A DNA stretch of 64,000 nucleotides from Zootoca vivipara (taxonomy: Eukaryota), in the NCBI RefSeq assembly GCF_963506605.1, contig NC_083288.1, positions 45,136,001 to 45,200,000 on the forward strand. The letters are read 5' to 3'. A program made the position numbers and the translations under genes. Positions within the stretch are counted from its first letter, which is position 1, and each line of letters starts with the position of its first letter. Shown here one piece after another: positions 8,101 to 51,744 of the stretch. Under the pieces are notes generated by a model. That model was not told where the DNA came from, ran no database searches, and saw nothing but the letters and a program-made list of their open reading frames with translations.

Positions 8101-8505
8101 TCAGGGGATTTGAGCATGGTTTCATGAACTTGCTGGATGCAGAAGAGTGGGAGGAAGCAGCAGCTGGGGGACCCCAAAAGGACACGCCAAGGAAAGGAGG
8201 CTCAGAGCCAGGGGATTGGTGGTGGGATGACAATGAGTGGTCAGTGGGAGAAGAGCGAGCAGACTGGGAGGAGGGGTTGTCAGAAATTGAGGAGGTAACA
8301 GGGTTAAGTGAGAAGGAAGAGGCTGTGGCAGATGGCATTCCAGTCTCCGAGGCAGAAGAGGAGGCTGGAGAGAAGCAGGGTTTGAGACAGTGATCAGACA
8401 GTTGTTAGCCCCTTCTGGTGTTAGGCTTCATGGCCAAGAAACCCCTGGTGGTGGGAAGACAGGGACAGGGGCCTTCCTTCCTTTTTTCTCTTTGATAGGC
8501 TGAGG

Positions 8506-8561
<56 letters not shown>

Positions 8562-11500: not shown

Positions 11501-12514
11501 TAGAACTTTGTCAACAACCTGCAAATGAAGTGAGGTTTTGTTTAATGGGAAAATTAAACAGTGCACAGAATCTAGATATGAGAGATTCACCCACCTGCCT
11601 ATAAAGAGAGGGCACGGCCAGCAACGTTTATGTATTTATTTAGACAACCTTTATATAATAGTGTGTCAATAAAAATATATTAAAGTGATTTCTACAGCTG
11701 CTGCAAACTTCATTGACATCTTCGTCAAACTATCTACTAAGACCACAACATCTTATTGATGATTTCTTACAACCAGTTGAGACCCCATGACTGTAGAAGT
11801 GAAATTATTATTATTTTGCTCATCACTTTGCACTTGCTTACAGTGAATTGAATTTGCCATTTTCCTGCCCATGCATTCCCTTTGAAGAGATCATTTTGTT
11901 GCTCTTTGCGACCCATGTTTGTTTTCTCCATCCTGGACATTTTGGTATCATCAGCAAAGTTAAGGACCTCACTGCTTGCCCATTTGTTCCTCTTACGTTT
12001 TTATGACATCCCTTTTATTTTCTCTTGCTCTTTTTCTCTTTTCTCTCTACCTTTATAGAATTTGACAAAGAAAGCTCAGCGTTCATTGGCAGTATATGCA
12101 TAGCCTATGTGCATGGAGATTTCTAATAAAAACGCGCGTGTGTGTGTAGAAAATAGTTCCATTCTTTTTCTAAAAATTTTTTAAAGCTTTTTTTCAACAA
12201 ACCAATCAAAAGTTTTTTCCCGAGTCAAGCATGGCATATAAAGAATACATAAAATAATATTAAGTACCAGTTACTTACAGTGGGGTATCAATGAAGACCT
12301 TGGAAGGGTGTTTATTGAAGGATAAATTGGGGACTATATAACAGATATGAGATGCCATTGCACCAATGACCAGGTCACCTGGCTCATACCACTCGTGTGG
12401 AACATGGACAGGATTATTAGTTGTGCAGTTAACACTTTGTACTTGGGACACCAGATTGGGGAACAGCAGGAGCAGCAGTAGCAACATTCTGATGGCAAAT
12501 ACCCTTGTCTGCAT
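4284..12514 (-). CDS. Vomeronasal type-2 receptor gene 1 (class C GPCR), 6 coding exons: 12279-12514, 11227-11518, 9030-9905, 7471-7698, 5373-5499, 4284-5185; 2661 nt, 886 aa
   Basis: Signal peptide, Venus flytrap motifs ([30 protein letters not shown]), Cys-rich CCYDC, 7TM with [16 protein letters not shown]. All introns are GT-AG and the exons join in frame. Confidence 0.93.
5373..5499 (-). CDS. V2R-1 exon 5 (Cys-rich domain)
   Basis: [42 protein letters not shown]; 127 bp. Confidence 0.9.
6021..6797 (+). mobile_element. Solo LTR (about 415 bp excluding the nested SINE)
   Basis: TGTTGG...CCAACA termini, 5-bp TSD CTGGG, internal AATAAA. Confidence 0.85.
6308..6658 (+). mobile_element. Sauria SINE, full length
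   Basis: tRNA-like head with B box GGTTCGAATCC, ACCTTT-type tail, 11-bp TSD CCTCAGATATA. Confidence 0.9.
7471..7698 (-). CDS. V2R-1 exon 4
   Basis: [18 protein letters not shown]...WHRDFTQ; 228 bp; translated by hand, absent from the ORF track. Confidence 0.9.
8120..8800. repeat. LTR-like interspersed repeat, paralogous to about 19350-19947, with an L2-like 3' end and (AAT)n inserted
   Basis: Shared by V2R-1 and V2R-2 intron 3; family not identified. Confidence 0.45.
8506..8561. repeat. (AAT)n microsatellite, tail of an L2-like fragment on the minus strand
   Basis: Direct observation; adjacent TTTATACCCTGCC matches the reverse complement of about 41010-41025. Confidence 0.9.
9030..9905 (-). 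CDS. V2R-1 exon 3
   Basis: ISYG...VEPWQ; 876 bp. Confidence 0.92.
10086..10371. mobile_element. hAT MITE
   Basis: TIR CAGGGCTGTCTTA/TAAGACAGCCCTG, 8-bp TSD CTCAATGG; empty site in V2R-3 at 32119-32126. Confidence 0.9.
11227..11518 (-). CDS. V2R-1 exon 2
   Basis: [18 protein letters not shown]...KIPQ; 292 bp with AG/GT ends. Confidence 0.92.
12279..12514 (-). CDS. V2R-1 exon 1 (signal peptide)
   Basis: [17 protein letters not shown]...GDLVIG; donor GTAAGT. Confidence 0.85.
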
Positions 12515-13151
12515 AGACACTCCTGGTTCTCTCTACAGTATTATTACTCTTCTCCACCTGATCTGAACAAGACAAATTGGGTGGTCGTTGACTCTGTCAA
12601 TTAGGAACTTTAAGGGACACCTATCCACATTATTGTTAACTAAAAGAGTGTCACAACAGAATGTCTTGGATGCGAAATAAGATACAGTGATTTGATATGA
12701 CGGAAGGAAACTGAAAACAGAGAGATAACAAAGCCCAGCCTCTCCCCCCCCCCCCTTACCATAGTTGTCTATGGAGCATCAAGGAGCTTATAATCATTTC
12801 AGACTTGCGTTTTGATTATTATTATTATTTTACACTCTGACATCTGCAGCTTCAGCCGGTTGAATTGATTATAGTAATTTAAATAATTGCAGGAGAGAGA
12901 ATTGCTTTTCTAGGGCTTTGGAATCTATGGCACATCAGCACTAAGGAAACTGCCAAAGTAATCATATTTGTGACGTTACAGAATCAGAGATTAGGCTTGA
13001 CCTAGAAGGTCAACCAGTTCACTTCCTGGCAATGCAGAATATCCACAAGTCTTTGTTATTTTTTGAAACCACTGATAAGCAGGAAACAAGACTCTTCCTA
13101 AAATTTCTCTATCGATTTTTTTTATAGAGTTGAGCCAACCATTTCTGAGTG

Positions 13152-15762: not shown

Positions 15763-16664
15763 TTATAACTTTCTTTGTGTTAACTGCTCTCTGTTGTTCA
15801 GGTCAGGCCTCACCACAATAATGTAGCATTTAGGGGCAAAAATGGAAACCAGTAACCCAGCACCAGAAGCAAAGATGGAGAAGATCTCCACAGCCACCAT
15901 GTATTTTCCTCTAGTGCTCAGATAAGTTGGAATGAAGGAGAGCCAAACACTGCAGAAGACCAGCATGCTGAAGGTGATGAACTTGGCTTCGTTGAAAGTG
16001 TCAGGCAACTTCCTGGCTAGGAAGGCCACCGTGAGGCTCACTGTGGCCAGGAAGCCCATGTAGCCCAAAACACAATAGAACATGGGGACTGACCCTTCAT
16101 TACAAAGAAATATGATTTCTCCCGTCATTGAGTGCATGTCCATGTCTGGGAATGGGGGAGAGGTTGCCAGCCAGAGGACACAGATCCCTACTTGAACAAT
16201 GGAGCAGGAAAAGACAATGGAATAAGCCAGTTCTTTGCCTACCCATTTCCTCATATTGGTTCCTGGTTTGGTAGCCATGAATGCCAAAACCACCAATATG
16301 GTTTTGGCTAAGATGCTGGAGAGGGCCACAGAGAAGACAATGCCAAAAGCAGTTTGTCGGAGAAGGCAAGTCACCTTATTAGGTTTTCCAATGAACAACA
16401 AAGAAGAGAGAAAACACAAGAGGAGGGAGATAAGGAGACCGTAGGTGAGGCTTCTGTTGTTGGCTTTGACTATGGCTGTATTGCGATGCTTAATGAAGAT
16501 GCCAAGGACCAGAATTGTGATAAGAGAGAACAGAAGCGCAAAAGAAGTTGAAACAATGGCCAAGGTTTCATCAAAGCCCAGGAAGTTTGGAATTTTGGGA
16601 ATGCATAGATCCTGGTCTTTGTTTGGATATTGATCTCCTGGGCAACTGACACATGTTTCCATAT
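15763..16664 (-). CDS. V2R-2 exon 6 (7TM)
   Basis: 902 bp open frame. Confidence 0.95.
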
Positions 16665-19600
16665 CTGAAACAAACAATACATGACAATTTGAAGCATATT
16701 TTGATGGTATCTATAAACAATTTAAACAGCACGTCTAATAATTTAAGCCTTCTGTCCTGCAACAGTTTTATGTCAACAAATTTCCCAAGAGCCCAAAGCT
16801 TTTGTATTATGTTAAGATATCATATCCCACCTTTCTCATTTGAAATCATTCCTTCTGGACATTGATCACAATCATAGCAGCAAAACTTCTTTCCCTCCTT
16901 CTTTTTCTTCCCATAACCAGGACGGCAGTTGGCATTACATATAGAAAGTGGTGGCACCTTTACAAAGAGATAGGAATAGTTTAATATTATGATATTGTTT
17001 TTTGAAATTTATCCAATATCCTATTTCAGAAAATAGGGGGACGAATAGTGTGAAATGATCCATATGTACACAAGTGGCAAATCCCATGGGGTGTTCTTTT
17101 GTGGTAGCTCACGGAGGCAGGAATTAAAGGTACCCCATTATAGTTGTTCTGCTCCAACCTGCAGAGTCATTAAACAAACTAGTACATGTCAGGAGATTCA
17201 GTTCCACCTTAAGGCTTAGGCATGTTGCTGCTGATGTATGTCACATGTCTAGGCATTTCCGTTTGTACTTTTTCTTTACTGTACTGTTTGAACTGATGGA
17301 TGAGATAAAGCATCATTTCGCTCTCTCTTCAGATACGCTGTAAATAAACCGCTTTAAAATGTCTTTCTGCTGCCTTATCATCTCCGCTGAAACTGCGTGG
17401 GCATCTCTGCTGATTGCGTGCTCAGGTCACTGAGACCCTGAGTCATGTTCCATGGGAATCACTGGGACTGAGGAGAAGAGGGGGCTGCCGGCTGGACCTC
17501 CCAATGGTGATATCCCAACAGTACAGTGGTACCTCTACTTATGAATAACTCTACTTACGAATTTTTCTACTGACGAATGGAGCTCTGTCTGCCATCTTGG
17601 ATGCGGTTTAGATAGGATTTTTTCTACTTACGAATTTTTAGATAGGGTTGCTTTGACTTGCGAATTTTTTCTACCAATGCATTCCTACGGGATTCGACTT
17701 ACAAATGTGCGTTCGGAACGCATTAAATTCGTAAGTAGAGGTACCACTGTACTAGGAAATCGGTCCATGACCTTTGTGTTGTGGTGTCCTGTTAGGGCCC
17801 ATTCTGTCTCCTATGGTATTCATCATCTATATGAAACTCTTAGAAATAATATCCTAGGATCTGGCACATGGTGTCATCTGGATGCGGATGGTGTGAAGTT
17901 CTACCTTTCTACCTTTCCATTCCATTGGAACAAGAGGGGGTGGTGAAGGTGCTGGACAGGTGTCTGGAGGCAGTGATGGAAGGGATGGAAGGGATGGGGG
18001 CTGAATCCTTATCAGAGAAAAATGTTTTGGGTGGGTGGTTCCAAGGCCTGACCTGTTCCAGGTGCTGAGCTTATCCCCTGCTTAGACCTTTTCACCAGCT
18101 ACAACTTCTCCTAGATGCATATGTCCTAAATGTAGATTCATACAAACTCAAGAAAATTATGTTGTTCATTCTCAACTCAAATACTGATACAGCTAGCTTA
18201 GTCTTCAATCTAATGCCACGAACTGGAGATTTGCTTCAGAAATTTCATAAACAAATATGGTGAACATTGCCAGACTCTGTGATAGAAATTGCTCTTCTTA
18301 GTGTGAGATGTCTTCTGTGCATGTTGCTCATTCCAGTATGGTGGCTCATTTGTTTATGTACAGGACAATATGTTTTCTTAGATGGCTTATTAGCATGCTA
18401 TAAATAAAAAAGGAATGCCACTATGCCATGTAATGTAACATTATGTACAAAGAAAAGTGCCATTAGCAAAATTGAAGGCCAACAAGCATGGCCTCAGAAG
18501 CTTTAGGTGCAAACCTAAAGGAAAAGTCACTCTTTCAAATAGAATATCTCTCAATTAAAGTACTCTCCATCTAGATATGAAAACTTCTTATTTTAACCCA
18601 TATTTAATTGTGAATTTCAAAGTTAATAATGTATGAAGTGCTTTTGTTACATCACATTTTGTGAATAACCACAATTTATGGCATTTCACGGACTCTGCCG
18701 TTATTCCCATACCTTAGTGAAGTCTCTGTGCCATTTGATTCTGTCCTCATTAATGGTGAACTCTTTGCCAGGAGGGGCCTGAGGATCCAACCTTCCCACT
18801 TTGACCCTGACATATGATCCATTTCGGAACGTGACCAAGTTAATCATATCGAAGCCAGCTGCTAATTCTCCATATTCATTTAATGTAATTTCATCCCCAA
18901 CACTGTTGTTGAATGAGATTCTCTGCAGGAATGAGTGGAGCTAAGTGGAAAGGGAATAAAAAGGTGTATAAAGCATTTTAATAGTCTAATTAAAAGTGTT
19001 AAATAGCTTTCCAAGATGGAATTAATTCATTTTCCTCTAGGAGGTAAACAATGAATTAAGTTCACAATGGGGGGTATCCATATTTCAGTTGCACATACAG
19101 GAGGAGGGGAAAATCATGAATCAGTGTCAATTCAACATTTGCCAGACTTCCATAAAGATATTATGAAGGAGAGTTGAGCCCATAGACCTGCTTGCTTGGG
19201 ACCTGCCTTTGTCAAGATCCAAGAAAGGTACAGAATTTGAGTAGTGATGTAAGAGAAGTGATGGGAGCTCATGTTCTGAAAGGATAGGAATGCAACATGA
19301 GAACATCTGACTGGGCCTTTCCTTTGTCTATAGAATGGATTTGAGCATGGTATCATGGAATTGCTGAATGCAGAGGAGTGGCAGGAAGCAGGAGCTGGGG
19401 AACCCCCAAGGGACACCCCAAGGAAAGGAGGCTCAAAGACAGGGGATTAGTGGTGGGATGACAATGAGTGTTCAGAGGTAGAAGAGGGTCCTGATTGGGA
19501 GGAGGAAGTGTCAGAAACCAAAGAAGCAACAGGGTTAAGTGAGAAGGAAGAGGCTGTGGCAGACAGCAATCCAGTCTCTGAGGCAGAAGAGGAGGATGGA

Positions 19601-21129
19601 GAGAAGCAGGGTCTGGAGACAGAGATCGCACAGTTGTTAGCCTCTTCTGGGTTTAGGCTTCGTGGTTCAGAAACCCCTTTTGGAGGGAAGGCAGGGAAAG
19701 ATGAGTCAGGGATAGGGACCTGCCTTCCTGTTTTCTCTTGGATAGGCTGAGGATCCTTGCAGAAGCCAGTGCCTGTGTTGGCATCCTGGTTTTGCTCCCT
19801 CAGAATTATGGGCCTGGGGCCATGGACCCTGGCCTCCAACTTTACACCACTGGGTAACTGGACAGGATAGAGAGCCAGAGAGAATTCTGGAGGGATATGG
19901 GGAGTAAACTGAGGGGTTGTGCAGTGTGGAGGAAGCGGCTGGCAACAGCTTTACTTACGTGTAGTTGTTGGTAGTCTCTTGCTTATGAAAGTCTGTGTCA
20001 TCTAATGTCTGTTCAGTATCATAGGAAATATTCTAATTCCCATCTTTGATTCAATAAAAGTTCCTTAGATTTCTTTTTAATTTCTTAAGTTCTATTCTTT
20101 TTTTCTTTACTGATAACTACAAGTCATCTCACATAATTTATCAATGCAGTGAGTGCTTTGTAAAAGGGAACAGTACCTGCCAAGGTTCTACATATCGTGA
20201 AGAGATTTTGCCCTTGGCATCTCTTCTCTTGCGAATGACTCCAGCGAAGCGCTTGCTATTTAAGGCATGTGCCAAAGCATAGACAGCATTATAGATACTG
20301 TAGCTTTGCCCAGTCATGCTCATTTCAAAAAATGGTGCAGGAAGGCTCTCCAGCAACTCCTCTCCAGTACATTTGCGAATGCCTGGTAACACAGTGGAAT
20401 TTGAAAGTGAACAATCAAATGCGTCTTCCCAGAAATCTTTGATAAAACCATCTGTGTCTGTCCAATGGGGATATATACTCTCCAGAAAGTTTTGAAATTT
20501 GTGAATCTCCTTGGAGTGAATCGCAAAGGAGGTAGCACCATGGAACATTCGTATATTAACATAAACTTTTTTTTGAAGGCTATGTAATATGAAATCAAGT
20601 TGGGCTGTTGTAATCCATACTTTTCCTTCACGTGACTTCATATGAGGAAATAGTAGCTGGGATAACTCCATCACCGTTAAAGCATTTGCCAACCACAGAA
20701 TAAATCTGCTTTCTCCGAATACAAGAACCGCATTGGCTTTGCTGGTTGTGAAAGTTGGTAACAATATCTTTGTGTCATCCACCATTTCTAGAAAGTTACC
20801 ATTAAAATGCAGATTGAGTTCAACTCTTTCTGTGAATGCTGAACAGATTCCATTCTTGAAAAACTTGGCTTCAATTGTCTGTAAGAAATGTTCACCGGCT
20901 TCATTAGCTGTAGTCACGAGCCCAACCCATTTCCATTGGAAATGCAGAAGTAACTGGATAATTCCCTGATACTGAAGGTCTTCATTGGGGACCATGCGGT
21001 AAAAGGAAGAGAACTTGGTTCCATCATTTATGGCCGGTTCAAACAAACCATATGAAATCTGGAAAAAGCAAAAGCCAAATGTTTCCAAGTGGAAACAAGA
21101 ACTCATGATATTCCAATTAATTTAAATAT

Positions 21130-21170
<41 letters not shown>

Positions 21171-24100
21171 ATAAATGGAATATATACCCCAAATATACCA
21201 AGTTTAGGGACAGCACCAACCCCATCTCATAGAGGGCTGTCTTAAGCATATGCGGTTCCGGGGTGCAAAGATCCGCCCGGGGCCTCTCCCCCAGTCCTAG
21301 AGGTGCTGGAGGGGGGAGCTGGCTGGACGCATCAGCGTCCCCCTGACTCGGTCACCCTTGAACTCGCGGCGCAAAAGAACCAACCACGTCGCTCTAACCG
21401 ATGGGAAGGCTCTTCCCCAGACTGAACTCTCAGGCCCCGGACTCTTGGCCTGATGCCCCTGAGAGCCCTGTGCCTGGGTACCCCACACCCCTAGCACCTA
21501 TGGGTAAGACAGCCCTGCTCAATGGTTTCTGTATATTTATTTTTATTCTTATGGCATCACCACAGCTTTATACTTGTACACACAGATTATATCCAAGAAT
21601 AGGGGAGCATTTATCATTGCTCATGTAAGTGGATGATTGAACAAAACTCCAAAGTGGAGGTTGATTGTGTACTTATGCTCCATAATCTTTACAGCAGTTG
21701 TAGAGAGAGGTTGATTCTCTATCTACTAAAAACTCTCTCAGGAAGGTTTCCTGGGAAATCATAAAGAGCTCCAAAAGATTATATATGTTATTGTTCTCTG
21801 ACTACAATAAACCACATCATATAAAATATCAGTAAAATGCAAATTAGTGTACCAACACTAATTAAAACAACTACCGGTAAATTGAAATCCAACAATGAAG
21901 CAGAACAGCACAATTCACTATATAACTTTCTGAAAGGACAGGTGCCAAATGCCAGGAAAATGTCAAGAAAAGTGTTTTCAATTAGCCTCTGAAAGTGAAC
22001 AAAACCACATCCGGGCCTGCGACAGAGGTGGTGTTGTGGGCATCATGACTGAACTCTCACGATGGGGCTGAGAGCTCAGCCCCTCTCGATTGGCTGTTCC
22101 CGCCTCCGTCGGTCCAGGGCTGACCAATGAGGTTGGTCGGGCGGTGGGACTTGCAGTCTTTAAACATCCTAGAGACGGGAACTCTGCCTCTTGCCTTCTC
22201 ACTCGCCAGTGCGATCGTTTCGCCCACCCACCCTTTAGGCTAGGCTGATGCTGCTATGGACTTCGGTTGGTTGCCTGGTTGGCCAGGGGCCTGGTCATAC
22301 TTTTCCCACTTGGTCTAGCCAAGATCTTTTTTTTTCGCCTACCTCGTAGCAATTCGTCACAACTTTTGGTTTGGCGGTTAGGCATTGGAAATTTGCATAA
22401 AAAGATGGTGGGGGGTCAGGTTGCGTCATCAACTGCGCAAGAAATGGAGAAGTATTCCGTTAAAGGGGCGGGGCTTGGTCCCAGACTCCAACACACGGGC
22501 TGGAGTCGGATATAGTCAGTTAGGTTCCAATGCCTAAGCCAAGTCAACATCCGTAACCAATAAAGTTGTGGCCTTTTCGCCCACTTAAAATCTATTCATT
22601 TGTGTCTTGTGTCTTATTTGTCACAGGGAAGGAGGGACATTGCCACACAATGTTGATTAACATCATACTTTGGGAAAGGCTATCTTGATTTTTAAGGGGA
22701 GGAACATTTTTAATTAACGTGTCCTGAGTCATTCATACCTTTGAAGCCATTGTCAATTTCATAAATTGAGTAGCTCACACGAAGCCAGTGCAGTGATTTC
22801 AGGAATGATGTATATGAACCAGTCTAGGTGCCTCCTTTACAAACCTGGCAGCTTTGCAGCAATCTTCTATTACATCTATTAAACACAAATTGTACCTTCT
22901 TACAAACATTGTTGGATATGGATATTATGGCCCTTTTACTTTGTCCATTTTACAACTCCATATTTATGAATCAGTAGATTCCTACTGAAGGAAAGCATGA
23001 ATTCTGTTTTTCAAAATCCATATTCTACCTGTGGAATCTTGAAAAGACCTAAGACGTTTGCCAAGCACCAGGAAGTATCAGAGCTAAGTCCCCCAATGAC
23101 TCCTATTACATTTTTCTGGATGCCACATCTGTAGTTTGGAAAAAAGTGACGTGATTTAAAGATCAGGTCCAGAGTTGTTCGGTAGGCCATCTTTGAATCA
23201 TAATAGTTATCATAGATGTGGAATCCAAGAGAGACATTGGGCAAAATCCTGGGATTCTCATTGATCTCATCAATAGCAAACACCAAAGCCAGGATGTGCT
23301 GGTAGAACTTTGTCATCACCCTGCAAATGAACTGAATTAATGTTTAATGGGAAAATTAAACAGTGCATATTATCTAGATATAGCAGAGATTCACCCACCT
23401 GCCCATAAAGAGAGGGCACAGCCAGCAAGGTTTATTTATTTGTTTAGACAACCTTTATATAGTACTGTGTCAATAAAAATATATTAAAGTGTTTTCTACA
23501 GCTGCTGCAAACTTCATTGTCGTCTGCATCAAACTATCTACTAAGACCACAACATCTCATTGATGATTTCTTACAACCAGTTGAGACCCCATGACGGTAG
23601 AAGTGAAATTAATTTTTTGCTCATCATATTGCACTTGCTTGCAGTGAATTGAATTTGCTATTTTCCTGCCCATGCATTCCCTTTGAAGAGATCATTTTGT
23701 TGCTCTTTGCAACCCATGATTGTTTTCTCCACCCTGGACATTTTGGTATCATCAGCAAAGTTAAGGACCTCACTGCTTGCCCATTTGTTCTTCGTATGTT
23801 TTTATGCCATTCCTTTTCTTTTCTCTTGCTCTTACTCTTTTTTCTCTCTGCCTTTATAGAATTTGATAAATAAAGCTCAGCGTTCATTGACAGTATATGT
23901 TTGTAGCCTATGTGCATGCAGATTTCTAATAAAATTGTGTGTGTAGAAAATCTTTCCATTCTTTTTCTTTAAAAAGTTCTAAAGCTTTATTCTACAAACC
24001 AATAAAAAGTTTTCTTCCCATCAGCCATGACATATAAAGATTAAATAAAATAATATTAAGTACCAGTTACTTACAGAGGGTGATCAATGGAGACCAGGGA

Positions 24101-24307
24101 AGGGTGTTTATTGAAAGATATTTGGGGTAATATGTAATACATATAAGATACCGTTGCACCAATGACAAGGTCCGCTGGCTCATACCACTCGTGTGGAACA
24201 TGAACAGGGTGATTTGTGGTGCATTTAACACTTTGTACTTGGGACCCCATGTTGGGGAGAAGCAGAAGCAGAACCCACATCCTGATGGCAAATGTCCTTC
24301 TCTGCAT
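15763..24307 (-). CDS. Vomeronasal type-2 receptor gene 2, exons 24075-24307, 23029-23320, 20177-21058, 18713-18940, 16831-16957, 15763-16664; 2664 nt, 887 aa
   Basis: Same exon phases and motifs as gene 1, GT-AG introns, joins in frame. Confidence 0.93.
16831..16957 (-). CDS. V2R-2 exon 5
   Basis: 127 bp, CCYDC. Confidence 0.9.
17187..17520 (+). mobile_element. Solo LTR
   Basis: TG...CA ends, 5-bp TSD GTACA, AATAAA; absent from V2R-1. Confidence 0.8.
17524..17749. mobile_element. Tc1/pogo MITE
   Basis: TIR CAGTGGTACCTCTACTTA, TA TSD; second copy at 45783-46025. Confidence 0.9.
18713..18940 (-). CDS. V2R-2 exon 4
   Basis: 228 bp, near-identical to gene 1 exon 4. Confidence 0.9.
20177..21058 (-). 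CDS. V2R-2 exon 3
   Basis: 882 bp, ISYG...VEPWQ. Confidence 0.92.
21133..21168. repeat. (CA)n microsatellite
   Basis: Direct observation; longer than the homologous tract in V2R-1. Confidence 0.9.
21233..21517. mobile_element. Same hAT MITE insertion in V2R-2, left flank deleted
   Basis: Near-identical to 10086-10371 at the homologous site. Confidence 0.85.
22000..22648 (+). mobile_element. Unclassified retroelement repeat (possibly DIRS/Ngaro-type terminal repeat)
   Basis: Insertion relative to V2R-1; shares blocks TAGCAATTCGTCACAACTTT, CCAATGCCTAAGCCAAG and AATAAAGTTGTGGCC with copies at about 48.0, 51.8 and 55.7 kb. Confidence 0.55.
23029..23320 (-). CDS. V2R-2 exon 2
   Basis: 292 bp, MTKFYQH...KIPQ. 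Confidence 0.92.
24075..24307 (-). CDS. V2R-2 exon 1
   Basis: [17 protein letters not shown]...; donor GTAAGT. Confidence 0.85.
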
Positions 24308-24926
24308 AGACACTCCTGTTTCTCTCTACAATGTTATTGCTGTCCTCCTCCTGATTTGAACAAGAGAGATTGGGTGGTCGTTGACTCTGTCAATGTGGCA
24401 CTTAAAGGGACACATATCCACCTTATTGTTAACTTGAACACTGTCACAACAGAATGTCTTGGATGCCAAATAAGATGCAGTTATTTGATATGACAGAGGG
24501 AAACTGAAAACAGACAGGTAACAGAGCCCAGCCTCTCTCTCCTCCCTTACCATAGCTGTCTATGGAGCATCAAGGAGCTTATAATCATTTCAGACTTGTG
24601 TTTTGATTTTTTTTTTTTTTACACTCTGACATCTGGAGTTCAGCCGGTTGAATTGATTATAGTAATTTAAATAATTTCAGGAGAGAGAATTACTTTTCTA
24701 GTGCTTTTGGAGTCTATGGCACACCAGCACTAAGGAAACTGCCAAAAGTAATCATATTTGTGACATTACAGAATCAGAGATTAGGATTGACCTAGAAGGT
24801 CAACCAGTTAACTCCTTGGCAATGCAGAATATCCACAAGTCTTTGTTGTTTTTTGAAACCACTGTTTAGCAGAAATCAATACTCTTCCTAAAATTTTTAT
24901 AGAGTTGAGCCAACCTTTTCTGAGTA

Positions 24927-25340
24927 AACACTAAATCAACTAACCCCTGTGTTGCAAACTCCAGACTAAAGACAACAGCGTCAACACATGGACCGAATGA
25001 AAAATGAGGGCATAAATGTATATCTTTGTAAGTTGCAGTGAAGCGATATTCAAGAGTACACTCCATATAGTATCAAATTAAAATTCATCCAGTGATATAA
25101 TTTGAATGCTTAGCGATATCTGTCGATGCAAATAATAGCAAATAATAGACAGTGATCCGGATAATGACACTGTTTCGACGTGGTCTTCCTCAGCGTTCAA
25201 CTCAGAAATGTATACCGTCAACTTCTAAGGAGCAGTGGTCATAAAACTATTTTTATCACTAAGCATTCAAATTATATCACTGGATGAATTTTATTTTGAT
25301 ACTATATGGACTGTACTCTTGAATATCGTTTCGCTGCAAT
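24927..25340. mobile_element. Penelope-like element remnant with inverted repeat and hammerhead motif
   Basis: 86-bp inverted arms 25033-25118 and 25254-25339; hammerhead core on the minus strand; RLKTTASTHGPNEK* resembles a GIY-YIG C-terminus. Confidence 0.7.
25141..25200 (-). ncRNA. Type I hammerhead ribozyme motif
   Basis: CUGAGGA-A-GAC(CAC)GUC-GAAA-CAGUG(loop)CACUG-UC; stem I is weak. Confidence 0.65.
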
Positions 25341-25400
25341 CCACTTTCCATTACTTTCAATGGGAAATTCACTTCAGGTTAAGCACACTTCAGGTAAAGT

Positions 25401-26142
25401 CAGCGTTTCTCAACCGGTGTTCCGCGGCACAGTAGTGTGCCACGAGAAACCGGCTTGTGTGCCGCGACGTGCGACGAGGAAAAGGGCGCTTTGCATTGCT
25501 GACGGACTTCCGGCGAGGCAAGCGCGAAGCTCCTGAGAGCAACCAGCACGCCCGTGCCGCCAGCCTAGCCTCCGGACCGCCGGAACCGCTGCCGCCGGTA
25601 CACGGGCGCCAAGTGAGCCCGCCGGATCGACCGGGGAGCCGCTGGAGGCCCCCCCCCGTGACCCCACCGGAGCGACACTGAAAGCGCCCGGCTGGAGGAT
25701 CGACGGACCCCTGGGCTCCACGGCTGCCGCGTGGGCGTCGGAATCGCCCGGCGGATCAAGCGGGGAGCCGCTAAAGCCCCCCAGCGAGCCCGCCTGCGGC
25801 CGGGAAAAGTTCTGAAGCCCGGGACCTCCCACGACGCGACGGCCCTGCCTCGTCGCCGCAGCCGTCGCCACCCCAGCCGCCGCAGGAGAAGAGGAAAAGG
25901 AGGGAGCCCCCCCCCCAGGTGAGGGAAAAAGGGAAAGATAGGGAGGAGAGGGCCCCTCGCCACCCCCTAATCCAGGTGAGAGCGCCTGGTGGGTCCGCCT
26001 GGCTACCGTGCAGCAGTTCTTCAGTGGCATGCTTTTCCCCTCCAAACTAAACTAAATATAGGGCGGCACAGAGTTGGTGTGCCGCGGGATTTTTTTTCAT
26101 AGAACAAGTGTGCCGTGGCCCAAAAAAGGTTGAGAAACACTG
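25401..26142. mobile_element. hAT non-autonomous element (GC/CpG-rich)
   Basis: TIR CAG(C/T)GTTTCTCAACC, 8-bp TSD GGTAAAGT/GGTTAAGT; nested in a Tigger-like end. Confidence 0.85.
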
Positions 26143-26189
26143 GGTTAAGTAATGACTTCCTGAACCAATTAAGTACTTAACCTGAGGTG

Positions 26190-26370: not shown

Positions 26371-27735
26371 AAAAGATTCCTTCTTGTCCCTCTTAAAAAG
26401 AATAGACACGACAATTTCGTTAAAGTCAATATAAAAGTAGTTTACTCACAATCATTCAGTTCAGAGTTGGTTCCTTGAAGGCAGACTTGGGTTACAAAAG
26501 TATATATACATGTGGAACTATCCCATAAGGGAGTTATTCTCAAGTGACTGTGAACAGGCAGTCACTTCTGAAAATGGAGGAGAGAGCAGAAGGAGGAGGT
26601 GTGGTCTCATCCTCAGGTCAGGCCACACCCACATTTAGTCACATGCAGAGGAAGTTTGTCCTACCTCAGGAGGAAACAGGAAGTTTTCTCCTGAGTGGTA
26701 CAAAGCATCCCCCAACATGTCCATTCTAGGAGTGTTGTATTCAACTGCTATGTGTTTCATATCCCATGATGCCCTCCAAAAAGTCCAAGGTACACTGGAT
26801 GAAGCCAGTGAAGGCAAAGATGATATGGGGTGGGGCATCAGGTAGGAAGGAGAATCATTCAGCCAATCTCCTACATTATCATGGGAAGACACACCCAGAG
26901 CTCAGTTAGGTTTAGTTTATTTCACAGGTTATCCAGCTTAATACCTGAGTTTAGTTCCTGCCTCATGCACCACTGCCTGAAAACCCTAGAATATTCTGAG
27001 GCATCTATCTTTACCTTGTGTCAGGAGCCTGGGCTGCCATCTTGATAACACAGCACGCATGCCGTAATTGTAATATTTAATTTATTATAATACAATTAAC
27101 CTCGGACATCTAACCAAGCTTCTGTGTCTTACGAGTCAGTTGACCCTTCTGAGGAGTGCCCCTGGTTCTGCAGAATATCATGAACCTATGACCATTACAT
27201 TTCTGGGTTCGTTTCGTTTCTTTGGGCTCATGGGATTGATTGCCTCCTCTTACGCTGAGGAAATGCTACCCCTCCTGCTTTCCAAGGCTGCCTGTTCTTC
27301 AGTGATGTGGCTTCTCTCCCTCCCACTCTCTTCTAACACCTTATCTACATTCCAATCCATGTCACAGGGAGGGGAAGGGGACTGCTCCCAGCTGCTTGAC
27401 TGCTTCCTAACTCATGCTGTGTTTCTCTACGTGGGGTAGATGTGTTCGTGACACCTTGAGTGATACATAGCTGCTCTAACTTGACTTAACTGATGCCCAG
27501 TGTTTTCAAAATATTCTCAACCTAGCTCAGGACTGTGCCAAATCCAGTGCACAGTCTCACTGGATAGACAACTGCTCTGACTCAGAATTAGGCTGTTTGC
27601 AGTATTCAGGAGAAGGGTAAGAAGGGAAAGTAAATTTTCTGGTAGGGTCTTGGTTGAGAAAATACAGGGAAAGTGATACCTGCCAGCAAGTCCATTAAGC
27701 CTCAGACCTAAAGGAACCACAAATTTTTCTGTCTT

Positions 27736-28637
27736 TTATAACTTTCTATGTGTTAACTGCTCTCTGTTGTTCAGATCTGGCCTCACCACAATAATGTAGC
27801 ATTTAGGGGAAAAGATGCAACCCAACAGGCCAGCACTGGAAGCCAGGATGGAGAAGATCTCCACAGCCACCATGTATTTTCCTCTGGTGCTCAGATACGT
27901 TGGAATGAAGGTGAGCCAAACGCTGCAGAAGACCAGCATGCTGAAGGTGATGAACTTGGCTTCGTTGAAAGTGTCAGGCAACTTTCTGGCTAGGAAGGCC
28001 ACCGTGAAGCTGACAGTGGCCAGGAAGCCCATGTAGCCAAAAACACAATAGAACATGTGGTCTGACCCTTCATTACATAGAAATATGATTTCTTCGGTCA
28101 TTGAGTGCATGTCCACATCTGGGAATGGGGCAGAGGTTGCCAGCCAGAAGACACAGATCCCTACTTGAATCACAGAGCAGGAAAGGACAATGGAATAAGC
28201 CAGTTTTTTGCCTACCCATCTCCTGATCCTGGATCCTGGTTTGGTAGCCATGAATGCCAAAACCACCAATATGGTTTTGGCTAAGATGCTGGAGAGGGCC
28301 ACAGAAAAGACAATGCCAAAAGCATTTTGTCGGAGAGGGCAGGTCACCATATTAGGTTTTCCGATGAACAACAAAGATGAGAGGAAACACAAGAGGAGGG
28401 AGATAAGGAGACCGTAGGTCAGGCTTCTGTTGTTGGCTTTGACTATGACTGTATCACGATGCTTAATGAAGATGCCAAGCACCAAAATTGTGATCAGAGA
28501 GAACAGAAGCGCAGAAGAAGTTGAAACAATGGCCAGGGTTTCATCAAAGCCCAGGAAGTTTGGAATTTTAGCTATGCATAGATCCTGGTCATTGTTTGGA
28601 TACTGATCTGCTGGGCAACTGACACATGTTTCCATGT
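27736..28637 (-). CDS. V2R-3 exon 6 (7TM)
   Basis: 902 bp open frame. Confidence 0.95.
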
Positions 28638-31600
28638 CTGAAAACAAATAAAGAATGCATGACATTTTGAAGCATCCAATACTATTCTTAAGAATTTCCT
28701 CACTGAAATTTTAGGATAGAGTTTTCTATCTCAAAATGTTTAAGAACTTCTGGCCCACCTTCTTTTGCCCTAGATGCATGAAAATCAAAACTTTTGTATC
28801 AAATCTGCAATTTTCTACATGGGTGACATCTCTTTTTACTGGTCCCCTTCCCTTTTTGTTGTAACGACATGTAGTGATAGCAAAATGAGAAATACATTAC
28901 AGCAGAAATCTTTGGAGCTCAGAAAGGCAAGATTAATGAGACTTTCACCCTCCTGTCAAACAACCGAAATCTTACAGGAGAAACTACAACTTCTTTTCCA
29001 CTGTAACTTTGTAGAAGTTGGAGGTAAAATATATTACCTCTTTTTAAAAATATTTTTAATGTGTTTTTAGGATAGAATTAAATTGATATTAACTATTAAC
29101 AATGAGAACAACACATCTATTTAAGTTAAGGCTTCCCTCCTCCATCAATTTAATGGCAAAGAGTTCAGAGCTTATTAAAAAAAATGGTATAGCCTAAGAT
29201 GACATCTCCCACCTTTCTCATTTGAGATCATTCCTTCTGGACATGGATCACAATCATAACAGCAAAACTTCTTTCCCTCCTTCCTTTTCTTCCCATAACC
29301 AGGACGGCAGTTGTCATTACATATAGAAAGCGGTGGCACCTATTCAAAGAGATAGGAAGAGGTTAATATGAAGACAATATTTTGGGGGATTTATTTCTGT
29401 TCCTACTTGGCGGGTCATTTGAGAAACTAGTACGAGGAAACCACTGCAATGCTTTGGGGTTGTAGTATCCTATTTTATGCCATTCTGTTTCCTGTGCTTT
29501 TTATTATCTCTACAAAACTGTTAGGAATAATATCCTTGGATCTGGCTCATGGTGTCATCTGTTTGCTGATGATGTTAGCTCTATCTCTTCATTCCATTGG
29601 AATTAGAGGAGGTAGTGAAGGTGCTGGGCAGGTGTCTGAAGACAGTGATGGATGGGATGGGGACTGAGTCCTTATAGGAGAGAAATGCTTTGGGTTGGTG
29701 GTTCCTACATTTGACCAGCAAGAACTTCTTAAGTCTGGGCTACTCCTTGATTCTACTCCTTGATTCTAAGACTGGAGTCTTAATTATGGAATTTCAGAGC
29801 CTGTGCAGTTATTTCTGTACCTCAGTGAAGCCTCTGTGCCATTTGATTCTGTCCTCATTAATGGTGAACTCTTTGCCGGGAGGGGCCTGAGGATCCCACC
29901 TTCCCACTTTGACTCTGATGTACGATGTATTTGGGAATGTGACCAAGTTTGTAATATCCAAGCTAGCTGCCAACTCTCCATATTCATTGAATTTAATTTC
30001 ATCTCCAGCACTGTTGTTGAATGAGATTCTCTGCAGGTATGAGTGTAGCTAGGTGGAAAGAGAATCAAAAGTTCAATACAGCATTGTCATAGTCTGATTA
30101 TGATGGTTGAATAGCTTTCCTAGATGGTATTAAATCCCTTTCCTCTAAGAGTTAAACACTTCAGTTTACAATGGAGAGCATACTTGTTTCAATTTCTCAT
30201 ATGGGAAGACTAGGAAAATATGAATCAGTGTAAATTCAACAGTTGACAGACTTCCATAAATAAATGTGAAAGAGTTAAGTATATAGACCTTTTTGATTGA
30301 GACCTGCCATTGTCAAGATCCAAGAAAGGGAAGGAATTTGTTCATGTTCTCAAACATCATGCTCTCTAAGCATAGGAATGGAACATGTGAACATCTGACT
30401 GGACCTTTCATTAGTTTCTGTTGTTAATATGTCTGAGAAGGAGAACGGTGTGACTGTGGCCTCACTGACTTCAAAGCTGCACAATCTCAAACTCTTTGGT
30501 CCTTGTAGCATCTGAAGCATCATTCAGTGAGGGAGTGGAGGAGGAAGAGGAAGAGCCACACTTGTCCCTTGCCAGTAAGTACAGCAATTCTTAAGATGTT
30601 TTTTTAAATGGTTTTCTAGAGGTTATTCTGGCTTTAAATGATGTTGCCTGTACGTGCAACTGCTCCCTGTAAAATGTGTGTCATCTCTAAGTTTGTTGCT
30701 TATGAAAATCTGTGCCATCTAAAATCTGTTTAGTATCTTGATTGGAAATATTCTAGTTACAGGTAGGTAGCCGTGTTGGTCTGCCATAGTCGAAACAAAA
30801 TTAAAAAATTCCTTCCATTAGCACCTTAGAGACCAACTAAGTTTGTCATTGGTTTCAGTGTATCTGAAGAAGTGTGCATGCACACAAAAGCTCATACCAA
30901 TGACAAACTTAGTTGGTCTCTAAGGAAATATTCTAATTCTCATGCTTTATACAAGAAAATGACTCAAGGTTGCTTTCTAATTTCTCAAGTCCTTTTCTGT
31001 TATTTCTTTACTGATAATTAAATGCTTACTAACGTAATGGATCAATGCAGCAAATGCTTTGTAAGAGAGAACGTTACCTGCCAAGGTTCTACATATTGAG
31101 GAGAGAGTTTTTCCTTAGCATCTCTGCTCTTGCGGATCGCTCCAGCCCAGTGCTTGCTATTTAAGGCATGTGCCAAAGCATAGACAGCATTATAGATACT
31201 GTAGCTTTGCCCGGTCATGCTCATTTCAAAAAATGGTGCAGGAAGGCTCTCCAGCATCTCCTCTCCAGTACATTCTCTAATGTCTGCTGACATAGTGGAA
31301 TTTGAAAGTGAACAACCGAATGCATCTTCCCAGAAATCTTTGATAAAACCATCTGTGTCTCTCCAATGGGGATGTATATTCTGAAGAAAGTCTTGAAATT
31401 TGTGAATTTCCATGGAGTGAATTGCAAATGATATAGCACCATGGAGCATTTGGATATTAACATTCAATTTTCTTTGAAGGCTATATAATATGAAATCAAG
31501 TTGTGCTGTTGTAATCCATACTTTTCCTTCACGTGACTTCTTTTGAGGAAATAGTAGCTGAGTGAACTCCATTATGCTTAAAGCACTTGACAACCATATA

Positions 31601-34600
31601 TTAAATCTACTTTCTCCATATACAAGAACTGCACTGGCTTTGCTGGTTTTGAAAGTTGGTAACAAAATCCTTGAGTTACCCAGCATTTCTAGTAAGTTAC
31701 CATTATAATGCAGATTGAGTTCAACTCTTTCTGTGAATGCCGAACAGATTCCATTCTTGAAAAACATGGGTTCCATTGTCTGTAAGAAATGTTCACCAGC
31801 TTCATCAGCTGTAGTCACGAGCCCAACCCATTTCCATCTGAAATGCAGAAGTAACTGGATAATTCCCTGATACTGAAGGTCTTCATTGGGGACCATGCGG
31901 TAGAAAGAAGGGATCTTGGTTTGATCATTTATGGCTTGTTCAAATGAACCATATGAAATCTAGAGAAGGGAAAAGCCAACCATAGCCAAGTGCAAAAAAG
32001 TACTCATGTTATTCAAATTTCTTTGAATATAAATAGAAAACCTCTGTATCCCTACCTACTGTACAAAGTTTGGGGACCGCACCAACCTCAATTTGCATAG
32101 ATAACAAAGACAATATTGCTCAATGGTTTCTGCATATTTATTATTGTTATTGTGGCATCATCAGATCTTCATACTTGTACACATTGATAGTCTCCAAGAA
32201 CAGGGGAGCATTTATCATGGCTCATGTTAATATACTGCTAGGTGGGTGACTCAACAAAATTCCAAGGCGAAGGCAGAGCAATAGAAATGGTTGACCATGC
32301 ACTTTTGCTCTCTAACCTTTATAGCGATTGTTGGGAGAGGTTGGTTCTCTATCTACAAAGAACTCTCTCGGGAAGATATCTTGGGGAATCCTGAAGATCT
32401 CCATTAGACTGTATATGTTATTATTCTCTGAGCACAATCAACCACACCATATAAAATATCAGTAAAATACAGAAATACCATACCAAAAACTTTCAGCCAA
32501 GGTTATAACAACAAAGAATGAAATCCAACAATGCAGGAGAACAGCCCAGTACTGACACTACTATATAACTCTGCAGAAGGCCAAATGCCAAATGCCGTAA
32601 CAGTAACTATAAATAGTGTTTTCAATTAGCCTCGGAAAATTAATAATGCCGAATAACATCCTACATCCCTACGAATGGAAAATCTTGATTTTTAATGGGA
32701 GGGACTTTATTAGGTAACGTGTCATGAATTATTTATGCATTTGTCTTTTTTTATTAAAGATTTTCCTCATTTACAAAAGCACACACATTGTCTCTTTCTC
32801 CATCTTGTGTTTTCTACAGATCAGTTACGTTTGTTGTGAGATATTGGTGTTATATGCAGTATAGGGTTGGGAAGAAAATAGGCGGGGAGAGGAGAGAGGG
32901 TGTGGGGTGGTCAAACATGTTCTTTTACTTAGTGTATGCGTGGGGTTTTTGTTTCAGCATCACTTGGGTAAGTTATTTTTCTATTCACTTGTTATGTTTT
33001 CGTGGTGGTGAGTGAGGTTGGCGTTGTCTAGGGTGTGGTTGATTGTCTTTAGTTGGCTGCAGTGGGATTTGTTTGCATGTGTGTGAGCGCGGGTTGTTGG
33101 TTTTAAGTTAGTCCTATTGAATCGTATACTGTCGGTGTGTTTGTGTTGTTGTCTTATTGGGCTGTGTATGTGATCAAGGGGAGATACCAGAATGAAGACA
33201 TCCTCTTCTATTTCTCCCCGTGTCAGTTTCAGTCTATTGGCTAGCTTTTCTAGGAAGGCTGTTTCCCATACTACTTGATACCAATGTTCCATGTTTGTTC
33301 CTGACAGGTCCCTCCAGTGTCTGGCTATGATGTTTGTGGCTGCTGAGAGTAGGTGGGTTACAAGCTCTTTATAGTGTGAGTGGACGTTGTTATCTTGGAA
33401 GATGTTCAGTAGGGTCAGTTCTGGGGTGGCCTCTAGTACCTGTTATTTTGCTTATATCTTGTGTGACTATTGTCCAGAAGAATTGGGTTTGGGGGCATTC
33501 CCACCACATGTGGACATATGGGCCTGTGGAAGTGCAGCCTCTCAAGCATTTTGGTGAGGTTACTGGGCATATCATTGCCAGGTTCCATGGTGTTAGGTGC
33601 CATTGGTAAGTGACTTTCAGAGTGAGTTCTTTTCTTTTCACTGATATGGATTTAAAGGGACATTTAGACCATGTTCTAGTCCATTGTGTGGGGTTAATTT
33701 TGGAGCATATATTATCCCCCCATTGTTTTTTGATCGCGTCAAAGGGGTTTTGTGGGCTTTGGAGCAGTGTTTATTTATGCATTTGTAAGCCTGTGCTAAC
33801 ATCAAAAATTGAGATTAGACACCTCATTTATGAACCATGCACCTTTACAGCAATATTCTATTACATCTACAAATTGTCCCTCTCATAAACATTGTTGCAT
33901 ATGCATATTATTTCCCCACCCCAATTGCAGCCCCTTTTACTTTTTCCATTTTACCACTCCATAGTTATGAATCGATAGCATAGCTATCAAGTTATCCCTT
34001 TTTTAAAGGGATTTTCCCTTATGCTGAATAGGCTTCCTCGCGAGAAAAAGGAAAACTTGGCAGCTAAGATCGATAGGTTTCGAGAGCAGGGAAAGGAAAA
34101 GTGAATTATGGCATGAAAATTTTTCTTTTCTTTTCAAACCCCATATTCTACCTGTGGAATCTTGAAAAGATCTAAGATGTTTGCCATGCACCAGGAGGTA
34201 TCAGAGCTAAGTCCCCCAATGACTCCTATTACATTTTTCTGGACGCCACACCTGTAGTTGGGAATAAAGTGATGTGCTTTAAAGATCAGGTCTAGGGTGG
34301 CTCGGTAGCTCATCTTTGAATCATAATAGTTATCGTAGATGTGGAATCCCACAGAGACATTGGGCAACATCCTGGGATTCTCGTTGATCTCATCGACAGC
34401 AAACACCAAAGCAAGGATGTGCTGGTAAAACTTTGTCATCACTCTGCAAATGAATTGAGTTACTGTTTAGTGGGAAAATTACAGAGTGTGCATAATCTAG
34501 ATATGAGAGATTCACTTGCCTTTCTGTAAAGAGAGGACACAACCAGAAAGGTTTATTTATTTGTTTTGAGAATAGTATTATACCGCTGTTTCAGAAGAAT

Positions 34601-34975
34601 ATATTAAAGCGCCTGTGTGCCTGGAGATTTCTAAAAAAACACAGTTCTAAAGCTTTTATTCCGAATCAATCAAAGTTATTTTAAGTCAGATTCAACATTT
34701 CAGAAATAAATGAAATAAAAATAAATACTCGTTACTTACATTGGGGTATCAGTGAAGACTTGGGAAGGGTGTGTATCGAAGGATAATTTGGGGACTATAT
34801 AACAGATATGAGATGCCATTGCCCCAATGACCAGGTCACCTGGCTCATACCACTCATGCGGAACATGAACAGAATTATTAGTTGTGCATTTAACACTTTG
34901 TACTTGGGACACCAGATTGGGGAGCAGCAGAAGCACAAGGAGCAACATCCTGATGGCAAATACTCTTGTGTGCAT
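27736..34975 (-). CDS. Vomeronasal type-2 receptor gene 3, exons 34740-34975, 34152-34443, 31078-31959, 29821-30048, 29213-29339, 27736-28637; 2667 nt, 888 aa
   Basis: Same exon structure, GT-AG introns, joins in frame. Confidence 0.93.
29213..29339 (-). CDS. V2R-3 exon 5
   Basis: 127 bp, CCYDC. Confidence 0.9.
29821..30048 (-). CDS. V2R-3 exon 4
   Basis: 228 bp, [18 protein letters not shown]... Confidence 0.9.
30756..30923. mobile_element. Penelope-like mini-insertion with a degenerate hammerhead
   Basis: 12-bp flanking duplication GGAAATATTCTA; 30-bp inverted repeat (30824-30853, 30896-30925); CTGAAGA-A-GTGTG-CATG-CACAC-AAAA. Confidence 0.8.
31078..31959 (-). CDS. V2R-3 exon 3
   Basis: 882 bp, ISYGSFEQ...VEPWQ. 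Confidence 0.92.
32745..33770 (-). mobile_element. 5'-truncated L1/Tx1-clade LINE
   Basis: 16-bp TSD TTATTTATGCATTTGT, A-tail, ORF2 C-terminus CLRGC...HMWWECP. Confidence 0.85.
33979..34068. mobile_element. 90-bp hAT MITE
   Basis: TSD ATCGATAG; inverted copy at 47596-47685. Confidence 0.85.
34152..34443 (-). CDS. V2R-3 exon 2
   Basis: 292 bp. Confidence 0.92.
34740..34975 (-). CDS. V2R-3 exon 1
   Basis: [18 protein letters not shown]...; donor GTAAGT. Confidence 0.87.
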
Positions 34976-35404
34976 GGACTCCCCTGGTTCTCTCTAGAGT
35001 ATTATTACTCTCCTCCACCTGATCTGAATAAAACAAATTGGGTGGCAGCTGACTCTGTCAATTTAGCACTTTAAGGGACACGTATCCACCTTATTGTCAA
35101 CTTAAAGACTGTCACAACAGAATGCCTTGGATGCCAAATAGGACGTAGTGATTTGATATGAAAGAGGGAAACTGATACAGTAACTGATAGGTAACAAAGC
35201 CCAGCCTCTCTCTCTCCTCCCTTACCATAGCTGCCTATGAAGCACTGGGGAGCTTATAACCATTTCAGACTTGCTTGTTGAGCCTTTTTCCACTCTGACT
35301 TCTGGAGCCTTGGCCATGTGAATTGATTATTGTAATTTTAATAATTACAGGGAAGAATATCAATTGTGCAGTGCTTTTGGAGTCTATGGCATATAAACAG
35401 TAGG

Positions 35405-36823: not shown

Positions 36824-37753
36824 ATGAAGAAACCCAACCTGACTGTGGGGATTCAGTTCACCCTCTCTGGGTTTTCTGATGTTCTGGAGCTCCAGCTCCT
36901 CTTTTTCCTGCTCTTCCTTTTCATCTACATGTTGACTCTTCTCGGAAACATCCTCATATTCCTCACCATCTGGTCCAGCCCTGTGCTCCATTCCCCCATG
37001 TACTATTTCCTTGGCGAGCTTTCCATCCTGGATGTGCTTTATTCCAGCACCACCGTGCCCAAGATGCTGACCAGCTTCCTGACTGGTTCCCGAGCCATTT
37101 CCTTTGAGGGCTGTGTGGCTCAGCTCTATGCCTTCCACTTCTTTGGAGGCACCGAGTGTTTCCTGCTCACTGTCATGGCATATGACCGCTATGTGGCCAT
37201 ATGTGACCCTCTCCACTACTCTGGGATCATGAGCAACATGACTTGCATCAGACTGGTGGCTGCAACCTGCCTGGTGGGGGCACTTCATTCGACTCTTCAG
37301 ACTGTGCTCACCTTTCGCCTCCCTTACTGTGGGCCTTACAAACTTGACCACTATTTCTGTGATGTCCCGCCCTTACTGAAGGTAGCTTGTGCAGAAACCT
37401 CTCTGAATGAGACCGTGGTCAGAGTGAACATTGGTGTTGTGGCACTGAGTAGCTTTGCTTTGATCCTTGGTTCTTACATCCGCATTGCCATCACAATTCT
37501 CAAGATGCGCTCTGAGGAAGGGAAGAGGAAGGCCTTCTCCACCTGCGCATCTCACCTCACTGTAGTCCTCCTCCTCTATGGCCCTTGCATATTCATTTAC
37601 ATGCAGCCATCCACTGACCACTCTGCCCTGACCATTGTGGCCCTCTTTTACACATCTGTGACACCTGCCCTGAACCCCATCATCTACACCTTGAGAAATG
37701 AAGAAATCAAGAAGATGGTGAAGAAACTGGCATTCAAGAAGGTGTTTTCTTGA
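36824..37753 (+). CDS. Olfactory receptor, class II (OR10G/OR10D/OR12D-related group), 309 aa
   Basis: N-glycosylation site NLT, LHSPMYYFL, MAYDRYVAIC, KAFSTCASHL, PALNPIIYTLRN. Confidence 0.95.
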   Translation: MKKPNLTVGIQFTLSGFSDVLELQLLFFLLFLFIYMLTLLGNILIFLTIWSSPVLHSPMYYFLGELSILDVLYSSTTVPKMLTSFLTGSRAISFEGCVAQLYAFHFFGGTECFLLTVMAYDRYVAICDPLHYSGIMSNMTCIRLVAATCLVGALHSTLQTVLTFRLPYCGPYKLDHYFCDVPPLLKVACAETSLNETVVRVNIGVVALSSFALILGSYIRIAITILKMRSEEGKRKAFSTCASHLTVVLLLYGPCIFIYMQPSTDHSALTIVALFYTSVTPALNPIIYTLRNEEIKKMVKKLAFKKVFS

Positions 37754-50957: not shown

Positions 50958-51744
50958 TTACCTGGGCAGCTAATAGGATTTCACTGGCCATTAGCTGTGT
51001 TCACTCAGACAATATGGGGAATGCTATCTTATACTATGTTGGTGCATAATAGAAATATGTTCATTTTCCAATGGTGTCTGTGGTGAACAAGAATCTTGGG
51101 TGATCTAAAGAATGTTTCTAGCTAATCAGTTTTCTTAAAGGTGGGCATTGGGGAAAGGGAATGTGGAATGAATCAACTTCCCCATACATATGGGGCTGGG
51201 GTTTGTTGTGAGGGTGCTGTTGGTTTTTCTGTATCTTTATTCTAGATATTGTTGTGATTTATATGGAAATTATTCTATTTGGCTGGGTATTATTAAATGT
51301 TTGTGACTACTTTTGTTATGTTGTAGTTACATTTTTTAAAAAACGTAAGTTGCCTTGAGCATGGTTTTAACTGTGCAACAGTGGCATACACATAAAATCA
51401 TGTATGTATATATGAAATTTTATTTGTATGCCACCTTTCCATAGTTCAAACCATGTTCGAGGCAACTTACAACTAGGGGGAAAACCCCACACAATTCTGA
51501 CATAACAAAACGAGTCACAAAATACACAAAAACACATAACCAAATTAAACAATTTCAACATAATAAGAGCTAAAGTAAATATATTTTTTGGTATATCATT
51601 AACAGCAACAACGCCATAAACAAAACCCCATAAACAATACCCCAGCCTAAGAGTCCATTTAGCAGCCACAGTAGCTCAAGTCAGTCAGGGCCCTGTGCTC
51701 CCAGACCAAGTGGAAAAGGGAGATGGCCTTCCAAGATTCACGCT

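Follow-up and report, generated by a model that had tools for sequence, protein, structure and literature searches.

The 64,000-nt stretch of Zootoca vivipara DNA analysed here (the window) contains a hammerhead ribozyme motif that is enclosed by an inverted repeat and lies just upstream of a V2R-like gene. This raises the question of what the insert is, how it was formed and whether it acts on its neighbour. The preliminary description of this DNA had read it as the hammerhead of a Penelope pLTR, which was correct as far as it went but left unnoticed that this is a spliced copy whose beginning coincides with a likely transcription start. In itself, the locus proved to be unremarkable debris of repeats close to a V2R gene.

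The hammerhead motif and its insert

As had been described, the minus strand reads CUGAGGA at 25193-25187, an extra A at 25186, GAC-CAC-GUC (stem II) at 25185-25177 and GAAA at 25176-25173, followed by a stem III of ACAGUG/CACUGU whose loop contains AUCCGGAU, and by C17 at 25148; all of these letters were verified. The motif (25148..25194, minus strand) is a type I hammerhead variant with an intact core, in which CUGANGA, GAAA and UH are all present, an extra A after A9 and a cleavage site after 25148. Its predicted helices are a stem II of 3 bp, a stem III of 6 bp with a palindromic loop, and a stem I of one G-U pair. Stem I had been called weak, possibly through decay of CGUU. The weakness is real, while the decay could be rejected because 38 of 39 family copies carry A at position 2.1, with UAU(U/G) 3' of the cut; the G at 2.1 is private to the window copy (1/39).

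A strict descriptor combining core, stem II and stem III had a single match in the window, against none in 200 Markov-1 resamples. The Rfam scan that the preliminary description had proposed as a check gave no hammerhead model match even at E<=10, and when 66-141 nt were folded without constraints, the hammerhead did not emerge, with z ranging from -0.7 to 0.9. Predicted pairing probabilities were 0.6-0.8 for stem III, 0.1-0.2 for stem II and about 0 for stem I. Adopting the active fold is predicted to cost 9-14 kcal/mol, a value calculated without an active-ribozyme control and ignoring tertiary contacts and protein help. On these models the window hammerhead is predicted not to fold unaided. 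In keeping with the earlier statement that a palindromic loop 3 supports dimeric cleavage, a dimer is predicted to be favoured (-30.7 against 2 x -10.6 kcal/mol), yet stems I and II are unformed in the palindrome-bridged dimer. RNA depth over the cleavage site was 1-5 reads.

The motif is part of a main copy of about 325 nt (minus strand, 25250-24927). This copy derives from a Neptune-type Penelope-like element (PLE) and comprises its terminal repeat, made up of the pLTR and a 37-nt tail; it differs by 3.0% from the majority sequence of the family, the median over 57 pieces being 3.8%. On the minus strand, it begins with a 50-nt exon 1 of the Neptune pLTR (25201..25250), matching exon 1 of intron-keeping copies at 96%, and continues over an exact splice junction (25200..25201), where comparison with intron-bearing copies revealed a missing GT...AG intron. 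The pLTR part 3' of the hammerhead (24966..25147) extends to a first cluster of family 3' ends, 16 pieces ending at the equivalent of about 24965. The PLE tail of about 37 nt (24927..24965) forms the 3' end of the insertion and corresponds to a second such cluster, beyond which the junctions diverge.

Joined to this copy via about 3 filler bases is a head-to-head inverted fragment of the same element, the right arm (25254..25339, plus strand). It pairs with the left arm at 25033-25118, which is a part of the pLTR stretch 3' of the hammerhead. Both arms are 86 nt long and 94% complementary (5/86 differences), as had been noted, and the fold of the inverted repeat has z = -13.3, with 0 of 100 shuffles equally stable. 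Its assignment as a Penelope-type inverted repeat was likewise confirmed, the right arm being the usual head-to-head inverted fragment of PLE insertions. At its outer end, this arm runs directly into the interior of a MITE-like repeat of high copy number (loose ends at 25338), and about 0.8 kb found in a paralogous V2R unit is missing at this locus. No target-site duplication (TSD) is left at the window locus; TSDs of 12-15 bp were found at 3 of 14 family loci checked. The empty site is visible in two paralogous V2R units, one at 13.1 kb and another in L055.

Several minor features were seen in the same context. The target site at 24915-24925 resembles the spliced exon junction at 25200-25210 over about 10-11 nt in inverted orientation, which may be due to chance. 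A GC-rich element inserted at 25402-26143 in what remains of a MITE-like repeat has short terminal inverted repeats together with a near 8-bp duplication. The labels MITE-like and, for 25402-26143, hAT-like denote resemblances. Other fold-backs, with sub-threshold Rfam miRNA matches or long inverted arms, were found at 1781-1875, 51345-51470 and 58378-58674.

A dispersed, probably Neptune-type family and its hammerhead motifs

Window positions 24900-25400 belong to a dispersed family with at least 126 genome matches (40 of 739 candidates scored), and exact patterns of the family occur at 26-35 places in the genome. The attribution to a Penelope pLTR was substantiated by longer copies, which link the pLTR to RT and GIY-YIG on the same strand; upstream on the hammerhead strand they run into a 3' UTR and then an ORF (L016, L037, L042, L034 and others). 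Pfam searches matched two of three family ORF fragments, with RVT_1 at E 2e-9 and GIY-YIG at E 0.005; the placement of RT plus a C-terminal GIY-YIG within a single ORF on the strand of the pLTR is drawn from family fragments only, with GIY-YIG below the Pfam cut-off. The ORF has the C-terminus F(M/T)FK(T/M)L(H/R)P(E/G)GLN..CF, e.g. KTLHPEGLN. A CX2-5CxxC linker, CGRCPSC or CGRCPAC, is present between RT and EN in L032, L034, L039 and L044-L046. Since such a CxxC linker is given in the available sections of PMC8557442 as a mark of Neptune that is common to Nematis, the sequences suggest that the element is an EN+ Penelope-like element of the Neptune clade.

The preliminary description had also translated RLKTTASTHGPNEK followed by a stop from the plus strand and likened it to the end of a GIY-YIG domain. 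The translation is right, but what it reads is the antisense of the non-coding tail, with a stop that none of the five other family copies examined shares; in the longer copies, the true GIY-YIG end is found upstream of the pLTR on the hammerhead strand.

The 3' ends of the family group at two positions separated by about 37 nt, with 16 pieces in one cluster and about 34 in the other, and head-to-head inverted pieces were counted by eye in about 20 of 48 family loci. Near-symmetric head-to-head pLTR pairs, several of them spliced in both halves, were seen at L010, L011, L120, L128, L138 and L147. Among the loci examined (40 candidates scored), no partial-tandem full-length copy with two pLTRs was found. 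Tandem head-to-tail hammerhead units, the mark of non-LTR retrozymes, were likewise absent, the copies being single or head-to-head. No depth was obtained over the element or its left flank in contigs of organism B (X16) at 88% likeness, which hints at a young family. A further Penelope-type copy at window positions 30758-30926 belongs, as had been proposed, to a distinct family that is far more abundant (2516 first-look candidates) and has a classic minimal hammerhead; this copy has a palindromic 6-bp stem II and G12 changed to A.

A looser hammerhead pattern was found at 191 genome places, against 1 for a reversed control. Among 100 listed of these 191 matches (60 regions examined), the hammerhead occurs in at least nine subfamilies. 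Stem I measures 1-2 bp in all nine and never more than 2 bp; among 99 motifs from the examined loci, 90 have pair 2.1-1.1, subfamilies A, B, C and E using A-U and D, F, G, H and I using G-C. Stem II is 1-3 bp long (only 1 bp in four of the nine) and stem III mostly 4-6 bp, while a TCCGGA-type palindrome in loop 3 is found in seven of the nine and is absent from C and E. A covariation test on 8 aligned rows did not rise above shuffles (38/500). A longer or bulged stem I and a pseudoknot of loop II with the 3' strand were compared by eye and found inconsistent across subfamilies. An excess of core conservation among copies (5/440 versus 333/9250 non-CpG changes) was set aside as evidence because the searches had in part been built on the core itself and the comparison took in divergent rows. 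The hammerhead of the source element kept the core, G10.1-C11.1, stem III and pair 2.1-1.1, and the window copy inherited its hammerhead from there. In subfamilies F-I (L090-L106), the splice acceptor appears to lie further from the hammerhead, or no obvious intron was seen within 150 nt upstream.

The 56 metazoan minimal PLE hammerheads drawn in Fig. S3 of PMC4209133 share with this family the CUGANGA motif, a nucleotide added after A9, G10.1-C11.1 and the palindrome of loop 3. Their helices I, II and III measure about 2-6, about 3-8 and 1-3 bp, respectively, against 1-2, 1-3 and 4-6 bp here, and none of the 56 motifs in that figure matches the present proportions. The variant is a direct test of the minimal secondary structure in a natural hammerhead with a protein partner.

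Spliced and intron-keeping copies

The window copy lacks the pLTR intron exactly, the GT...AG intron lying between the equivalents of 25201 and 25200. It is present in L004, L016, L024, L025, L029, L037, L042 and others, with a length of 115 nt in L029 and L042 and more where a TA run or an insert grew; exon 1 measures 44-50 nt in the family. Among the 82 copies with readable junctions, 41 are spliced. These 41, from four subfamilies, all stop within 62 nt upstream of the junction, 36 of them at 40-62 nt and five inside exon 1. By contrast, 30 of 41 intron-keeping copies reach beyond 62 nt (26/37 without four references). When loci obtained through the ORF query are left out, the counts are 0/41 spliced versus 18/25 intron-keeping copies, with p about 1e-10, a value that is optimistic because the 62-nt cut-off was set post hoc and fold-back pairs are non-independent. 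The count includes one intron-keeping row, L032, whose match probably arose by chance. Five intron-keeping copies (L121, L081, L074, L134 and L046) stop 50-59 nt upstream and two more are interrupted there. Subfamilies A, C and E each show the split, while B has a single spliced copy.

The positions at which copies end point to 25250 as the likely transcription start. Among the pieces examined, no copies start at the hammerhead cleavage site. Family RNA reads in X22-X24 were few and on the sense strand; those that are spliced include flanking sequence of genomic copy L015 and therefore show neither new splicing nor cleavage.

The window copy is intron-less, starts at 25250, has the tail as its 3' end and carries an uncut hammerhead; it is short and likely inactive. 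With good confidence, we regard it as one insertion, likely neutral, in which the 5' end of a spliced RNA from a Neptune-type PLE was copied uncleaved back to its start, the priming having likely taken place at the tail. According to this model, sense RNA from the pLTR promoter would be spliced near the cap only, and the element protein would prime inside the RNA at the tail, at either of two sites 37 nt apart. Priming at the first pLTR of the capped, spliced RNA would yield copies of ~325 nt like the one in the window, and priming at the downstream pLTR longer copies with the intron unspliced, reverse copying proceeding to the transcription start without hammerhead cleavage. The inverted arm may have come from a second priming off the other target strand, and a deletion of ~0.8 kb, at or after insertion, would have removed the outer end of the arm together with any target-site duplication. 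Exactly spliced copies that end at the likely start require a sense template, and the fixed length of the spliced copies agrees with internal priming as demonstrated in vitro in the accessible part of PMC11167929. A full-length element with both pLTRs was not recovered, and a promoter in a solo or 3' pLTR would yield the same copies as a 5' pLTR template.

That lizard Neptune elements in general leave two classes of copies, short spliced ones from tail to cap and long intron-keeping ones, and have a hammerhead that is protein-dependent or non-cleaving, is a reading towards which we lean. If true, it would mean that PLEs use sense RNA and internal tail priming in vivo, and that the intron is kept only because the intron of the downstream pLTR is unspliced. 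The available text of PMC3846280 leaves undecided whether an antisense or an unspliced sense template accounts for intron retention in PLEs, and the family pattern bears on that question. In the accessible text of PMC11167929 uncleaved RNA is the template, with which the absence of copies starting at the cleavage site agrees. Alternatively, the short spliced copies could form a separate non-autonomous (SINE- or retrozyme-like) family derived from one intron-less master, as would suit their uniform length and the description of retrozymes as non-autonomous PLE pLTR derivatives in the available portion of bioRxiv 10.64898/2026.07.22.740005. This we hold to be improbable: in each of A, B, C and E, which have exon sequences of their own, spliced and unspliced copies stand side by side, so four masters would be needed; tandem arrays are lacking; and a subfamily variant 3' of the cut is shared by spliced (L008, L013, L020) and unspliced (L029, L042) copies.

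Compared with EN+ PLE insertions of the Neptune clade, as covered by the available sections of PMC8557442 and PMC3846280, the family shares the RT, CxxC linker and C-terminal GIY-YIG, the pLTR hammerhead near the 3' end, head-to-head inversion and TSDs, the last of which are absent from the window locus. Both the 30-40-bp tail and the inverted 5' piece of such insertions are present here, the tail of PMC8557442 and PMC11167929 (parts available) corresponding to the two 3'-end clusters 37 nt apart. Whereas the same sections of PMC8557442 and PMC3846280 stress intron retention in genomic copies, half of the readable junctions here are spliced.

In D. virilis Penelope, following the accessible parts of PMC2377424 and PMC4209133, the pLTR intron lies 46 nt after the start, close to the 44-50 nt found here, and likewise ends just 5' of a short (2 bp) helix I; unlike here, helix II has 6 bp and helix III is small, and the spliced form figures in those parts as an RNA or a predicted motif. 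Poseidon PAc of Anolis carolinensis, in the available part of PMC11167929, similarly has two RT start sites that define the tail and an uncleaved template, and its need of a protein for hammerhead activity would be a further likeness; it belongs to a different clade, its ORF starts in stem II, a start that was not seen here, and splicing is not dealt with in that part of the paper. New here are the hammerhead shape, with short helices I and II and a long III, and the spliced/unspliced split, the element class itself being known. The accessible literature yielded no earlier description of this motif or of genomic PLE copies that had been spliced, Repbase, Dfam, subscription papers and the supplements of bioRxiv 10.64898/2026.07.22.740005 lying outside this search; those supplements may list related families.

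The V2R neighbourhood

Three tandem V2R-like genes, 86-98% alike and in units of about 11.5 kb, are situated on the minus strand at 4287-12532, 15766-24325 and 27739-34993; the V2R label derives from translations and from the naming in the preliminary description. The first coding exon of V2R-2, a neighbour outside the element, was identified by translation at 24074..24307 (minus strand). Its ATG at 24307 lies 841 nt from the cleavage site, in line with the 0.8 kb given earlier, and the hammerhead was correctly placed on the V2R sense strand, as the flanking V2R genes share the minus strand with it. V2R-3 ends near 27739 on the same strand.

Regulation of V2R genes by the insert is unsupported by these data. 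It had been suggested that read-through RNA from V2R-3 is cleaved, or folded into the 86-bp hairpin, before V2R-2 is reached. The insert does lie on the V2R gene strand, 620 nt from the ATG of V2R-2, with an intact hammerhead core, a stem III of appreciable pairing probability and a very stable hairpin. Against this, AATAAA is present at 27086 and 26921, between V2R-3 and the insert, stem I is a single G-U pair and stem II is rarely formed in prediction, the insert is absent from the paralogous V2R units, and the divergence of the window copy is ordinary, like that of other copies; we find such regulation scarcely credible. In about 6% of each of the RNA runs X22 and X23, no read fell on V2R-2 exon 1 or over 26751-27012; coming without V2R-2 expression, these runs have no bearing on read-through. 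Slightly less remote, though still very doubtful, is the idea that an internal pLTR promoter starting at 25250 and directed towards V2R-2 provides an alternative 5' end for this gene. Its orientation suits, and the pLTR of D. virilis Penelope has an internal promoter able to drive genes downstream (PMC2377424, available part); however, the upstream pLTR and the intron are absent, and no reads joining the insert to V2R-2 were found in X22 and X23, from tissue without V2R-2 expression.

Further V2R-paralogous sequence was found in L054/L055. An olfactory-receptor-like single-exon ORF is located on the plus strand at 36824-37750, with related stretches near 42793, 50287 and 56810.
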